Source: a virus
Taxonomy: Duplodnaviria > Heunggongvirae > Uroviricota > Caudoviricetes
Reading direction: 5' to 3' (one strand)
Length of the DNA stretch: 9,837 nt
Virus record (IMG/VR): IMGVR_UViG_2711768014_000003
The notes beneath the pieces were generated by a model. That model worked only from the letters and a program-made list of their open reading frames with translations. It searched no databases and had not been told where the DNA came from. Of this stretch, positions 2,854 to 9,749 are shown piece after piece. The first letter of the stretch is position 1, and each line of letters begins with the position of its first letter. The position numbers and the translations under genes were made by a program.

Positions 2854-3059
2854 TCCCCGCGGTGCTCAAAACACCTCGAAAGCGGTATCCACACCCGATA
2901 GCCATGTGGTTTTTTTGTGTCCAGAATTCTTGGTTTATGACCGGGTGTGCGGCTAATACAATACCAGCAATGGAAATACGCCCGCCGACTTTCGACGGTT
3001 TTGAGCGCCCGGTCACCCTCTCAAAAGGGGTAAATCAAAATATTCGAAAGGACATGTCT

Positions 3060-3623
3060 ATGAATCGCACGTCTATTGAAAAACTCCCGTCACTTACGCA
3101 TAACCATCTTCCTGTCATGACAACAGAGCTGCTGGCTGATTTGTACGGAACAGAGCGCCAGCGTTTGACAAACAATTTCAATCGAAACAAAGAACGGTTT
3201 ATAGAAGGTAAACATTTTTTCCTGATAGAAGGTGATGCGTTACGAGAGTTGAAGAACGAAAACTCTTTAAGAGTTTCTGTGAAAATTGCCCGTAACGTTC
3301 GCTCCCTCATCCTCTGGACAGAACGTGGCGCAGCCCGTCACGCCAAAATGCTCGAAACCGATCAGGCGTGGGAAGTGTTCGAAAAACTGGAAGACTGTTA
3401 TTTCAACCAGAAACAGCCACCAGCGGCACAAAACACATCTATCGAAAATGATGGATGCGCATTACTGAGCCACTTCGATAAACACGGTCAGGTTGAGTTC
3501 ACGGAAAAGGTACCCGCCGATGCGATGGTATGTACTCTGGAACGGTTTAAATTTTATCTGGAGCAACACGGGTGGATCGTTGCCCGTAAAGAGCAACTGG
3601 TGGAGCGGTTGATGCGGTTTTAA
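3060..3623 (+). CDS. ORF6N-domain protein (KilA-N/antirepressor-like DNA-binding domain) with uncharacterised C-terminal domain
   Basis: ORF-track 2862..3623. The N-terminal region (HLPVMTTELLADLYGTERQRLTNNFNRNKERFIEGKHFFLIEGDALREL) fits the ORF6N consensus as I recall it (V..T..LA.LYG...R.L...RN..RF.EG..F.L). Start chosen at ATG 3060, with AAAGGA 7 nt upstream; the ATG at 3054 is in frame but too close to the SD. The upstream 64 codons of the ORF are probably untranslated. Confidence 0.7.
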   Translation: MNRTSIEKLPSLTHNHLPVMTTELLADLYGTERQRLTNNFNRNKERFIEGKHFFLIEGDALRELKNENSLRVSVKIARNVRSLILWTERGAARHAKMLETDQAWEVFEKLEDCYFNQKQPPAAQNTSIENDGCALLSHFDKHGQVEFTEKVPADAMVCTLERFKFYLEQHGWIVARKEQLVERLMRF

Positions 3624-3698: not shown

Positions 3699-3726
3699 AA
3701 ACCCGCCGATGAGCGGGTTTTTTTAT
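3699..3726 (+). terminator. Intrinsic terminator after the ORF6N gene
   Basis: Stem AAACCCGC (3699-3706), loop CGATGA, stem GCGGGTTT (3713-3720), followed by TTTT (3721-3724). Confidence 0.6.
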
Positions 3727-4736: not shown

Positions 4737-4769
4737 AGGCCATCAGAGTTTTGCTGATGGCCTTTTTTC
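4737..4769 (+). terminator. Strong intrinsic terminator about 35 bp upstream of the holin gene
   Basis: Perfect 10-bp stem AGGCCATCAG (4737-4746) / CTGATGGCCT (4754-4763), 7-nt loop, followed by TTTTTT (4763-4768). Confidence 0.6.
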
Positions 4770-4803: not shown

Positions 4804-5019
4804 ATGTATCAGATGGAAAAAATATCAACAGGCATTGCCTACGGCACCTCCGCCGGCAGTGCCGGCTACTGGTTTTTGCAGTGGTTGGATCAGGTCAGTC
4901 CATCACAGTGGGCTGCGATTGGTGTGCTGGGAAGTCTGCTTCTGGGGCTTCTGACTTATCTGACAAATCTGTATTTCAAAATAAGAGAAGACAAGCGTAA
5001 GGCTGCGAGAGGTGAATAA
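4804..5019 (+). CDS. S: Class II holin, phage 21 S-type pinholin with dual-start motif
   Basis: The 71-aa product ([71 protein letters not shown]) is near-identical to my recollection of phage 21 S21: two TM segments, charged C-terminus, Met1/Met4 dual start (alternative start 4813). The stop overlaps the endolysin start (TAATG). Confidence 0.9.
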
Positions 5020-5166
5020 TGTCGCCATCATTACGCAAGGCTGTTGCAGCTGCTATTGGTGGTGGGGCTGTTGCTATAGCATCTGTGTTAATCACTGGCC
5101 CAGGTGGTAACGATGGTCTGGAAGGTGTCAGCTACATACCATACAAAGATATCATTGGTGTATGGA
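5019..5166 (+). CDS. R: SAR endolysin (R21-type lysozyme), 5' part only; 3' part lost in the N run
   Basis: The N-terminus ([52 protein letters not shown]) matches the signal-anchor-release domain of phage 21 R as I recall it. The ORF runs into the Ns at 5167, so the catalytic domain is not visible. Confidence 0.85.
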
Positions 5167-5483
5167 CTGTATGTCANNNNNNNNNNNNNNNNNNNNNNNN
5201 NNNNNNNNNNNNNNNNNNNNNNNNNNNNNNNNNNNNNNNNNNNNNNNNNNNNNNNNNNNNNNNNNNNNNNNNNNNNNNNNNNNNNNNNNNNNNNNNNNNN
5301 NNNNNNNNNNNNNNNNNNNNNNNNNNNNNNNNNNNNNNNNNNNNNNNNNNNNNNNNNNNNNNNNNNNNNNNNNNNNNNNNNNNNNNNNNNNNNNNNNNNN
5401 NNNNNNNNNNNNNNNNNNNNNNNNNNNNNNNNNNNNNNNNNNNNNNNNNNNNNNNNNNNNNNNNNNNNNNNNNNNNNNNNNNN
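5167..5483. other. Run of 317 N (assembly gap or masked sequence)
   Basis: Directly visible. It interrupts the endolysin 3' region and the 5' regions of Rz and Rz1. The apparent in-frame continuity across the Ns in the ORF track is an artefact. Confidence 0.99.
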
Positions 5484-5660
5484 GCAGTCTGTCAGTCAGT
5501 GCGTGAAGCCACCACCGCCTCCGGCGTGGATAATGCAACCAGCCCCCGACTGGCAGACACCGCTGAACGGGATTATTTCACCCTCAGAGAGCGGCTGATG
5601 ACGATGCAGATGCAACTGGAAGGGGCACAGGAGTATATCCGCACTCAGTGCATTAAGTAG
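5484..5660 (+). CDS. Rz: Rz i-spanin, C-terminal part only (5' end in gap)
   Basis: The translation after the gap (AVCQSVREATTASGVDNATSPRLADTAERDYFTLRERLMTMQMQLEGAQEYIRTQCIK) closely matches my recollection of the lambda Rz C-terminus. Stop at 5658-5660. Confidence 0.85.
   Translation, partial: AVCQSVREATTASGVDNATSPRLADTAERDYFTLRERLMTMQMQLEGAQEYIRTQCIK
5485..5598 (+). CDS. Rz1: Rz1 o-spanin, C-terminal part only, embedded in the +1 frame of Rz (5' end in gap)
   Basis: The +1 frame after the gap gives QSVSQCVKPPPPPAWIMQPAPDWQTPLNGIISPSESG, matching the proline-rich lambda Rz1 C-terminus as I recall it. The lipobox and start lie in the N run. Confidence 0.8.
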   Translation, partial: QSVSQCVKPPPPPAWIMQPAPDWQTPLNGIISPSESG

Positions 5661-5702: not shown

Positions 5703-6053
5703 ATGCCATCACTAATCCCACGTGCCTGCCGTAAGCGTGGATGTGCAGGTACAACCACAGACAGTTCGGGTTACTGCGATAAACATCGCGGTGAAGGCTG
5801 GGTGCAGCACCAGCGCGGACTGAGCCGCCACCAGCGTGGCTATGGCTCAAAATGGACGGTGATTCGTGCCCGTATTCTGAAGCGCGATAAAGGTCTGTGT
5901 CAGTTGTGTCTGCGTGTCGGTGTGGTGAGCGAGGCGAAAACCGTCGACCACATCATCCCGAAAGCGCATGGCGGAACAGACGCAGACAGCAACCTGCAGA
6001 GTCTGTGCTGGCCCTGCCATAAAGCGAAAACAGCGCGCGAACGAATCCGGTGA
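5703..6053 (+). CDS. HNH endonuclease (phage packaging-associated HNH)
   Basis: The 116-aa product has paired Cys motifs (C..C...C..H and CQLC...CWPCH) and an HNH core (DHIIPKAHGG...N). ATG at 5703 with GAGGT 5 nt upstream. It sits immediately upstream of the terminase small subunit, the arrangement known from HK97-like cos phages. Confidence 0.85.
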   Translation: MPSLIPRACRKRGCAGTTTDSSGYCDKHRGEGWVQHQRGLSRHQRGYGSKWTVIRARILKRDKGLCQLCLRVGVVSEAKTVDHIIPKAHGGTDADSNLQSLCWPCHKAKTARERIR

Positions 6054-6075
6054 TAATTATTCTCACTTGTAGGGA

Positions 6076-6136
6076 GGGGCGGGGCAAATCCCTGTGACCT
6101 GACGTCTTCCGGACTGCCCGCCCCATCGTTTTTTTA
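6076..6136 (+). promoter_or_regulatory. GC-rich dyad element with T-run between the HNH and terS genes; candidate cos region and/or terminator
   Basis: GGGGCGGG (6076-6083) pairs with CCCGCCCC (6117-6124) across a ~33-nt spacer, followed by a T-run (6129-6136). It lies in the 121-bp intergenic region where HK97-like phages place cos. Confidence 0.3.
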
Positions 6137-6174
6137 TACCCGCGAAAAATGAAATTTAACCAGGAGTGCCGCAT

Positions 6175-6669
6175 ATGGCTGGAACGGCGGGGCGTTCCGG
6201 GCGTCGCCCCAAGCCAACGGCGCGCAAGGCGCTGGCCGGAAACCCCGGCAAGCGAGCCCTGAACAAAGATGAACCTGTTTTTACGCCCATCAAAGGTGTT
6301 GAGCCACCAGAGTGGTTCGCTGAAGAAGATCTCCCTCTCGCCACGATCATGTGGCAACTGACAACCAAAGAACTCTGCGGTCAGGGCCTGCTGTGCGTGA
6401 CTGACCTGGCGGTACTTGAGCGGTGGTGCGTGGCCTATGAGTTCTGGCGACGTGCCGTGAAAAATATTGCCATACAGGGCAACACCATCACCGGTGCAAT
6501 GGGCGGCAGGGTCAAAAATCCGGAGCTGACCGCCAAAAAAGAACAGGAGTCCGAGATGAGCAGCACGGGGGCAATGCTCGGACTCGACCCCAGCAGCCGC
6601 CAGCGTCTGATTGGCCTGGCGGGGCAGAAGAAAGCCACTAACCCGTTTCTGAAAATTATCGAATCATGA
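6175..6669 (+). CDS. Terminase small subunit (P27-family-like)
   Basis: ORF-track 6166..6669. ATG at 6175 with CAGGAG 8 nt upstream. Basic N-terminus ([27 protein letters not shown]) and overall resemblance to the P27-family small terminases as I recall them. The stop overlaps the terL start (ATGA). Confidence 0.75.
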
Positions 6670-8399
6670 GCCGGAAATCTTACCCCAACGTAAATGCTGC
6701 AAATCAGTATGCCCGGGATGTCGTGCGCGGAAAGATTGTTGCCTGCCAGTTTGTGATTCAGGCCTGCCAGCGCCATCTTGATGACCTGATGGCGGAAAAA
6801 AGTAAGTCGTTTCGTTACCGCTTCGACAAGGACCTGGCTGAACGGGCCGCGAAATTTATTCAGCTGTTGCCGCACACCAAGGGGGAGTGGGCATTCAAAC
6901 GGATGCCCATCACGCTGGAGCCGTGGCAGCTATTTGTGATCTGCTGTGCGTTTGGCTGGGTCAATAAAGGCACCCGGTTGCGCCGCTTCCGGGAGGTGTA
7001 CACCGAAATCCCCCGTAAGAACGGCAAATCAGCAATCTCTGCCGGTGTTGCCCTGTATTGTTTTGCCTGTGATAACGAGTTTGGCGCGGAAGTGTATTCC
7101 GGTGCCACGACAGAGAAACAGGCGTGGGAAGTCTTTCGCCCGGCGCGACTGATGTGTAAACGCACACCCATGCTGACGGAAGCGTTCGGGATTGAGGTTA
7201 ACGCCTCAAACATGAACCGTCCGGAGGATGGCGCGCGGTTTGAACCGCTGATCGGCAACCCAGGTGATGGTTCATCACCCCACTGTGCCGTGGTTGATGA
7301 ATATCACGAGCATGCCACCGATGCGCTTTATACCACAATGCTTACCGGGATGGGGGCGCGACGTCAGCCACTGATGTGGGCCATCACCACCGCCGGGTAC
7401 AACATTGAGGGGCCGTGCTACGACAAGCGGCGGGAAGTCATCGAGATGCTCAACGGCTCGGTGCCTAACGATGAACTGTTCGGGATCATCTATACCGTTG
7501 ATGAAGGTGACGACTGGACCGGCCCGCAGGTGCTGGAAAAAGCCAATCCAAATATTGGCGTGTCGGTTTATCGCGAATTTTTGTTAAGTCAGCAGCAGCG
7601 TGCGAAAAATAACGCCCGTCTGGCAAACGTCTTTAAAACAAAACACCTCAATATCTGGGTGTCGGCGCGTTCGGCGTATTTCAACTTGGTGAGCTGGCAG
7701 AGCTGCGAGGATAAATCACTGACCCTTGAGCAGTTCGAGGGGCAGCCGTGCATTCTGGCCTTTGACCTGGCGCGTAAGCTGGATATGAACAGCATGGCGC
7801 GACTTTATACCCGCGAGATTGACGGTAAAACGCATTACTACAGTGTGGCCCCGCGTTTCTGGGTACCGTATGACACGGTGTACAGCGTCGAGAAAAATGA
7901 AGATCGACGGACAGCCGAACGCTTTCAGAAATGGGTGGAAATGGGCGTTCTGACCGTTACCGATGGTGCGGAGGTGGATTATCGCTACATCCTCGAGGAG
8001 GCCAAAGCGGCGAACAAAATCAGCCCGGTCAGTGAGTCACCCATCGACCCCTTCGGGGCGACCGGGTTGTCACATGACCTTGCTGATGAAGACCTGAATC
8101 CCGTCACTATCGTCCAGAACTTCACCAATATGTCCGATCCGATGAAAGAGCTGGAAGCAGCGATTGAATCGGGACGTTTTCATCATGACGGCAATCCCAT
8201 CATGACCTGGTGTATCGGCAACGTGGTCGGCAAAAACATGCCGGGTAACGATGATGTGGTGAAACCCGTCAAAGAGCAGGCGGAAAACAAAATCGATGGT
8301 GCAGTTGCGCTGATTATGGCGGTTGGCAGAGCCATGCTGTACGAGAAAGAAGACACGCTGTCTGACCACATTGAGTCCTACGGGATCCGCTCGCTTTAA
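6666..8399 (+). CDS. Terminase large subunit (ATPase plus nuclease)
   Basis: 577-aa product with a P-loop-like motif ([14 protein letters not shown]) and Walker B-like VVDEYHE. Length and position (after terS, before portal) are typical of Terminase_1-type large subunits. Confidence 0.9.
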
Positions 8400-8410
8400 C
8401 TGAGGTAATT

Positions 8411-8593
8411 ATGATCATGCTGATTCTCGCGCCTCTGGTGGGCGTGCTGGGTGCGCTTTTGCTGGCGTATGGTGCCTGGCTGATTTATCCCCCGGCGGGT
8501 TTTGTTGTTGCCGGGGCGCTGTGCCTGTTCTGGTCGTGGCTGGTGGCGCGATATCTCGACCGTACACGGCAGTCTGTCGGCGGAGGTAAATAG
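8411..8593 (+). CDS. Small hydrophobic membrane protein (two predicted TM helices), function unknown
   Basis: The 60-aa product ([60 protein letters not shown]) has GAGGT 5 nt upstream of ATG 8411. Its TAG stop overlaps a GTG (TAGTG) that is preceded by GGAGG. Confidence 0.5.
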
Positions 8594-9749
8594 TGTTCTT
8601 TTCGGGATTATTTCAACGAAAAAGCGATGTGCCGGTGACCACGCCAGCAGAACTGCTGATGCTATCGGGCTGTCATACGACACCTATACCGGAAAGCGGA
8701 TCAGTAGCCAGCGGGCCATGCGCCTGACGGCGGTCTATTCTTGCGTCAGGGTGCTGGCAGAGTCTGTTGGTATGCTGCCCTGCAGTCTCTACAAAATCAG
8801 CGGTACCCTGAAAACACGGGCGGTGGATGAACGACTGCATAAGTTGGTTTCGGCAAAACCTAATGGCTACATGACACCGCAGGAATTCTGGGAGCTGGTT
8901 ATTGTCTGCCTGTGTCTACGGGGGAATTTTTACGCCTACAAGGTAAAGGCACTGGGAGAAGTGGTGGAGCTTCTTCCGATAGATCCGGGCTGTGTGGAAC
9001 CGAAGCTGAACAGCCAGTGGCAGCCGGTTTATCAGGTGACGTTTCCGGATGGTTCCGTGGATGTGTTGACCCAGAATGAAATCTGGCATGTGCGCACCCT
9101 GACGCTGGATGGACTTGTCGGGCTGAATCCCATTGCGTATGCGCGTGAGGCCATTTCACTGGCAGCGGCAACCGAGGAGCACGGTGCCAGGTTGTTTAGT
9201 AATGGTGCGGTGACATCCGGTGTGTTGCGTACGGAACAAAAGCTCACGCCGGATGCTTACGAGCGTCTGAAGAAAGATTTTGAGGAGTGTCACACGGGGC
9301 TTGGCAATGCTCACCGCCCGATGATTCTGGAAATGGGGCTGGACTGGAAGTCGATGGCGCTGAACGCCGAGGACAGTCAGTTCCTGGAAACCCGCAAGTT
9401 TCAGCTGGAAGAAATCTGTCGTCTGTTCCGGGTGCCGTTGCACATGGTGCAGAACACCGATCGCGCCACCTTCAACAATATCGAAGAGCTGGGGCTGGGA
9501 TTTATCAACTATTCACTGGTGCCGTATCTGACCCGCATCGAACAGCGGATCAACACCGGACTGGTACGAAAAAGTAAGCAGGGCGTTTATTACGCCAAAT
9601 TTAACGCCGGGGCGTTACTGCGCGGGGATATGAAGTCCCGTTTTGAAGCCTACGCCACCGGGATCAACTGGGGAATTTACTCTTCCAATGACTGCCGCGA
9701 CCTGGAAGATATGAATCCGCGTCCCGGTGGTGTAATGCCGATCAGTTAA
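8593..9749 (+). CDS. Portal protein, HK97-family-like; reading frame apparently disrupted near the 5' end (frameshift, pseudogene or sequencing error)
   Basis: The body (frame of ORF-track 8502..9749) carries portal-like motifs (RAMRLTAVYSCVRVLAESVGMLP...). That frame has no in-frame ATG or GTG before 8718. An RBS-backed GTG at 8593 (GGAGG 6 nt upstream, coupled to the upstream stop) opens a different frame encoding MFFSGLFQRKSDVPVTTPAELLMLSG..., which stops at 8725-8727. Confidence 0.7.

Follow-up and report, generated by a model that had tools for sequence, protein, structure and literature searches.

The window analysed here (the whole stretch of viral DNA, 9,837 nt) is the late region of a lambdoid prophage, and its genes are as follows.

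46-1578: DnaB-like helicase
1832-2203: RusA
2172-2579: antiterminator Q
2862-3623: ORF6N protein
ending at 5660: lysis genes, partly masked by N
5703-6053, + strand: HNH endonuclease, the counterpart of HK97 gp74, an accessory factor for cos cleavage (Pfam HNH, E = 1.6e-16)
6175-6669, + strand: small terminase (TerS) of the P27 family, with ribosome-binding site AGGAG at 6162-6166 (Pfam Terminase_4, E = 3.7e-20)
6666-8399, + strand: large terminase (TerL) of HK97 type (Pfam TerL_ATPase and TerL_nuclease)
8502-9749: portal

A 306-nt run of N (5178-5483) masks the C-terminal part of a likely endolysin and the start of Rz, and the listed open reading frame 5019..5660 is an artefact because it spans this mask. 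The element may be a defective prophage.

Comparison of the packaging proteins with those of HK97 gives 34% identity over 70 aa between the window HNH protein and gp74 (E = 2e-10), and 26% identity over 522 aligned positions between the window TerL and gp2 (E = 8e-31), with TerL_ATPase and TerL_nuclease domains present in both large terminases. The window TerS has no significant BLASTP match to HK97 gp1; it belongs to Pfam Terminase_4, and gp1 is without a Pfam match. Of the marks of an HK97-type 3'-cos module, the window carries the TerL, the HNH protein and a cos region that can be aligned, and lacks homology of TerS to gp1 by BLASTP. Also present is the mark of the SfV/SfI/phiP27 type, a cohesive-end sequence (T/C)GCCCGCCCC flanked by the HNH gene and a terS of the P27 family.

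The HNH open reading frame ends at 6053 and the terS ATG lies at 6175, leaving an intergenic region of 121 bp (6054-6174). The sequence-only reading had described a G/C-rich dyad followed by a T-run in this gap, and we re-located both as described: the arms, GGGGCGGG at 6076-6083 and CCCGCCCC at 6117-6124, form a perfect 8-bp complement 33 nt apart, and a run of seven T (T7, 6129-6135) follows the right arm after 4 nt. Perfect inverted repeats of at least 8 nt occurred in 7% of 2000 dinucleotide-preserving shuffles of the 121-nt gap. Across the whole window we found 12 clusters of 8-nt inverted repeats against about 9 expected at random by our rough estimate, the HNH-terS dyad being the only all-G/C case among the 12. 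Folding of the dyad region is not exceptional (RNA z = -1.2, DNA z = -1.8), and the dyad exceeds chance expectation only weakly.

The identity of the region becomes apparent on comparison with phages whose ends have been mapped or annotated. Run-off sequencing outward from both ends of SfI virion DNA gave reads that both lack, relative to the prophage, the 10-nt sequence 5'-TGCCCGCCCC-3' (PMC3636060), and window positions 6115-6124 are identical to this termini gap. The last bases of the SfI record are ...GGACTGCCCGCCCC, and its first base corresponds to window 6125. In phiP27 the annotated 10-bp "cos-site", CGCCCGCCCC, falls on the columns of window 6115-6124, and the right end of the HK97 record, CGCCGCCAAA, aligns to these overhang columns without gaps. 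Since TGCCCGCCCC occupies the overhang columns of SfI, phiP27 and HK97, it is the eight 3'-terminal bases of this cohesive end that form the right arm of the dyad. The features of the gap, with distances counted from the proposed top-strand cut, can be laid out as follows.

6072-6090, + strand: left cos element, consisting of a G-rich box GGGAGGGGCGGGG (6072-6084) and CAAATC (6085-6090); holds the left arm of the dyad
6091-6114, + strand: spacer of 24 nt in the ungapped alignment, fixed in length and variable in sequence, ending GAC
6115-6124, + strand: cohesive-end sequence TGCCCGCCCC, identical to the SfI termini gap and aligning with the phiP27 cos-site and with the last 10 nt of the HK97 and SfI records; holds the right arm of the dyad
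6129-6135, + strand: T7 run, +5 to +11 after the cut, read as an A/T tract and not as the tail of a terminator
6137-6149, + strand: candidate TerS recognition motif TACCCGCGAAAAA, +13 to +25 after the cut

On this basis, region 6054-6174 very probably holds a cos site, that of a lambdoid prophage whose packaging module is of HK97 type and falls in the SfV/SfI/phiP27 subgroup. The suggestion from the sequence alone that the HNH-terS gap is the best candidate for the genome end thus agrees with the SfI overhang identity, the phiP27 cos-site and the HK97 layout. The alignment with HK97-type cos sites that had been named as a check gives an ungapped match in which a G-box and CAAATC are followed by a 24-nt spacer and then by a 10-nt overhang with YGCC at its start. 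What is read directly from the compared sequences is the identity to an experimentally mapped cos site, the conservation of the layout, and the homology of both TerL and HNH. That the region has no packaging role, being part of a decayed prophage remnant or of a phage that packages by the headful mechanism, is highly improbable: HNH, terS, terL and portal are intact open reading frames, the cos region is nearly identical to those of the viable phages SfI, SfII, SfIV and SfV, and the TerL is of the HK97 cos type.

In this cos site the top strand is probably nicked at 6124|6125 and the bottom strand at 6114|6115, which would leave a 10-nt 3' overhang. In HK97 the virion DNA has 3' overhangs of 10 nt, and cleavage at cos is stimulated by gp74 (PMC9410871). 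The proposed 3' polarity draws on this homology to HK97 and on the gap in the SfI run-off reads; we infer that a gap in both reads is expected for a 3' overhang because the template 5' ends are recessed.

The deposited ends of the sister phages disagree with one another. The SfI, SfII, SfIV and SfV records are all linearised inside the HNH-terS gap, yet those of SfV and SfIV begin 7 nt before the overhang, at the base corresponding to window 6108, that of SfII starts near 6050, and that of SfI ends at 6124|6125. Deposited record starts are partly conventions, and the cos mechanism of SfV is called "postulated" in the SfI paper (PMC3636060). Two viral contigs recovered by the pattern scan described below, L164 and L174, stop exactly after CGCCGCCAAA, the HK97 overhang, as would be expected for assemblies ending at a physical cos terminus.

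The closest matches to the window cos region come from the serotype-converting Shigella phages SfI, SfII, SfIV and SfV, which share TGCCCGCCCC, about 98% DNA identity from cos to terS (megablast against phage records; the terS genes by themselves give about the same value) and the order HNH-cos-terS-terL. Within the left element one or two bases set them apart from the window (G for T at 6084, C for T at 6091), and their upstream genes are different. The window HNH DNA is closer to that of the Stx2e phage phiP27 (NC_003356, cos-site 21806-21815), at 93.7% identity. This phage shares the layout and spacing, and has an overhang (CGCCCGCCCC) one base different from that of the window, and a TerS of the same Pfam family, but the two TerS proteins are only 48% identical and the spacer and downstream leader sequences differ. 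The HK97 record ends in ...GGGGGGGGGATCAAATC, 24 nt ending GAC, and CGCCGCCAAA, and begins GTTTGAATTTAACGCTAACCCGATTTTTTT. Like the window, HK97 has homologous TerL and HNH proteins, a G-tract with TCAAATC, a 24-nt spacer ending GAC, a 10-nt overhang, and, roughly 15-30 bp past the cut, an A/T tract with an ACCCG motif. The two differ in 5 of the 10 overhang positions and in the placing of the HNH gene: in HK97, 319 bp separate its end from the genome end, and in the window, where it adjoins cos and the terminase genes, 61 nt lie between its end and the overhang.

We extended this comparison to an anchored, ungapped alignment of cos regions from 80 viral loci encoding HNH relatives, comprising 61 unique sequences with HK97 included. 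In 61/61 unique sequences a G-rich tract is followed by (C/A)AAAT(C/T), always 24 nt upstream of the overhang; the spacer is constant in length and its last two bases are AC throughout, and a 10-nt block starting YGCC follows it in every case. The G-box and CAAATC are found at this fixed 24 bp from the cut in HK97, phiP27, SfV-type phages, Klebsiella phages and many uncultivated phages. A pattern scan of viral contigs with GGNTCAAATC-N24-CGCCGCC returned 120 loci, with an HNH relative nearby in 100 and a TerL in 90; the left element thus recurs in about 100 further loci linked to HNH. Two of the contigs, L164 and L174 named above, end exactly at the overhang, and about 15 hits are without a G-box and without HNH or TerL and look like chance matches.

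This alignment also bears on the dyad itself, which had been put forward as the cos candidate. All eight pairs are kept only in the SfV/SfI and phiP27 overhang types, that is, with TGCCCGCCCC (the window and the SfV/SfI type) and CGCCCGCCCC (phiP27). Pairing falls to 7/8 with CGCCCGCCTC, to 6/8 with CGCCCGCCAA, CGCCCGCCTA and CGCCCCCCTC, to 4/8 with CGCCGCCTCA (a Klebsiella phage) and to 3/8 with CGCCGCCTGA, the commonest type (34 unique sequences). HK97 is likewise without the dyad (3/8 pairs), as its overhang differs at 5/10 positions. No compensatory changes in the left arm were found across the 61 unique aligned cos regions. The region that had been singled out does hold cos, but the dyad within it does not appear to be a recognition feature, given that its complementarity is lost in most relatives. 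The G-box adjoins the C-rich overhang of the SfV/SfI/phiP27 subgroup, and judging from the alignment the dyad is therefore an incidental by-product of two separately conserved cos elements: G-box and overhang are complementary by coincidence in this subgroup.

The same data allow two functional readings of the dyad to be weighed. It could be a two-fold symmetric element, acting as a cruciform or as the site of a dimeric protein, through which terminase or HNH recognises cos. The SfV/SfI and phiP27 subgroups have perfect arms, and the cosN site of lambda has partial two-fold symmetry. However, the symmetry centre of the dyad, near 6100, lies about 20 nt upstream of the midpoint of the staggered cut; the complementarity is unconserved across homologous cos sites and shows no covariation; the DNA fold is unexceptional (z = -1.8); and classes C and D of the aligned loci, together with HK97, suggest that changes at the overhang end (CCCC to AA in class C) are tolerated when the terminase components match. 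We consider such a role very improbable.

The second reading, which had been offered as the possibility that the dyad is only a terminator, takes the dyad and T-run as an intrinsic terminator of the lysis/HNH transcript, possibly besides a cos site. A G/C-rich stem can form here, with 8 pairs (11 if one bulge is allowed), and its position ahead of T7 invites this comparison, but the geometry departs from expectation, with a 33-nt loop and a T-run 4 nt past the stem in place of a 3-8 nt loop and an immediate T-run. A terminator scan does not call the site, the RNA fold is ordinary (z = -1.2), and pairing falls to 3/8 in HK97 and in 34 unique relatives, without compensation, the T-run being still present elsewhere there. 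In lambdoid phages Q-modified late transcription has to pass from the lysis genes through cos into terS; the Q gene of the window lies at 2172-2579. The scan, the geometry, the fold statistics and the unconserved pairing thus lend the suggestion no support, and we regard a terminator here as very unlikely. A structured RNA in the HNH-terS gap was also considered and rejected, the region having no Rfam match at E <= 1. Elsewhere in the window, hairpins with immediate T-runs at 3699-3720 (8 pairs) and 4737-4763 (10 pairs), downstream of Q and the ORF6N gene, look far more terminator-like than the HNH-terS dyad.

With the dyad read as incidental to cos, the T-run finds a place among the A/T tracts that follow the cut in every class, including those without a hairpin (+24 to +30 in HK97, about +33 to +40 in classes C and D). 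In HK97 the TerS site has been mapped to CTAACCCGATTTTTT at +15 to +29, and the T-tract at +24 to +29 is part of it (PMC11331095). The candidate motif TACCCGCGAAAAA of the window resembles this mapped site and lies at a similar offset, despite the lack of BLASTP similarity between the two TerS proteins. The core A(T/C)ACCCGCGAAA keeps a constant distance in phages of the SfV type, in phiP27 and in Klebsiella phages, the identity of their TerS proteins being 48-88%. We propose TACCCGCGAAAAA as a putative TerS site; the transfer of its position from HK97 to the window is by analogy only, since the window TerS has no detectable sequence similarity to gp1.

A packaging scheme for this prophage can be drawn up on the model of HK97. 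The P27-family TerS would bind the concatemer just downstream of the cut, at the candidate TACCCGCGAAAAA and its flanking A/T tracts (6129-6157), and would position the HK97-type TerL. TerL and the adjacent HNH protein would then nick the bottom strand at 6114|6115 and the top strand, 10 bp further on, at 6124|6125, leaving the 10-nt 3' cohesive end TGCCCGCCCC. Packaging would proceed rightward from terS and terminate at the next cos, so that the HNH gene and the G-box/CAAATC element would enter the head last. The activity of this prophage is presumed. The logic is that of the cos site of lambda (cosQ-cosN-cosB), in which the cut is likewise flanked by an upstream, last-packaged element and a downstream TerS-binding region beside the terminase genes. 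Lambda cos differs in having 12-nt 5' overhangs and no HNH partner.

Within this scheme the G-box/CAAATC element corresponds in position to lambda cosQ, lying at the last-packaged end, and any function it may have is putative. We found no description of the G-box in the literature on a cosQ-like element in HK97. It is possible, if rather less than probable, that the G-box/CAAATC, exactly 24 bp upstream of the cut, is a distinct, uncharacterised cos subsite that remains linked to the HNH gene when terS and the right cos half are swapped. Such a subsite might signal termination in the manner of cosQ, or serve to dock HNH or TerL.

The exchange of cos halves can be followed in the compared loci. 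The window HNH protein is 97-100% identical to those of class-C loci, while TerS identity between terS classes is only 21-48%. HNH genes whose proteins share this 97-100% identity, together with the left cos half, adjoin at least three right halves and terS classes (window 5703-6114 against loci L005-L084), and the break between the halves falls in the spacer or at the overhang. From the position of this break cos appears to be a mosaic recombination joint, and the pattern suggests independent recombination of the two halves among phages, HNH travelling with the left one and terS with the right one. One viral contig, L207, carries a natural hybrid cos, in which an HK97-like left half (spacer TTCAAAACCTTTGCCCCAAAGGAC) is joined to a right half of the CCTCTTTTCACATCGCCGCAGG... 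class.

For annotation, the comparison means that the left end of the prophage genome starts at 6125 and its right end finishes at 6124, and that the packaging module belongs to the SfV/phiP27 branch of the HK97 type. The cos site as such is already known, its cohesive end having been measured in a near-identical phage and its layout being that of HK97. There is little new biology in its position, because experiments on SfI had established the cohesive end in 2013 and phiP27 carries it as an annotation. What is modestly new is the invariant G-box/CAAATC at a fixed distance from the cut and the independent assortment of the cos halves, and both could guide mutational work on the recognition of HK97-type cos sites.
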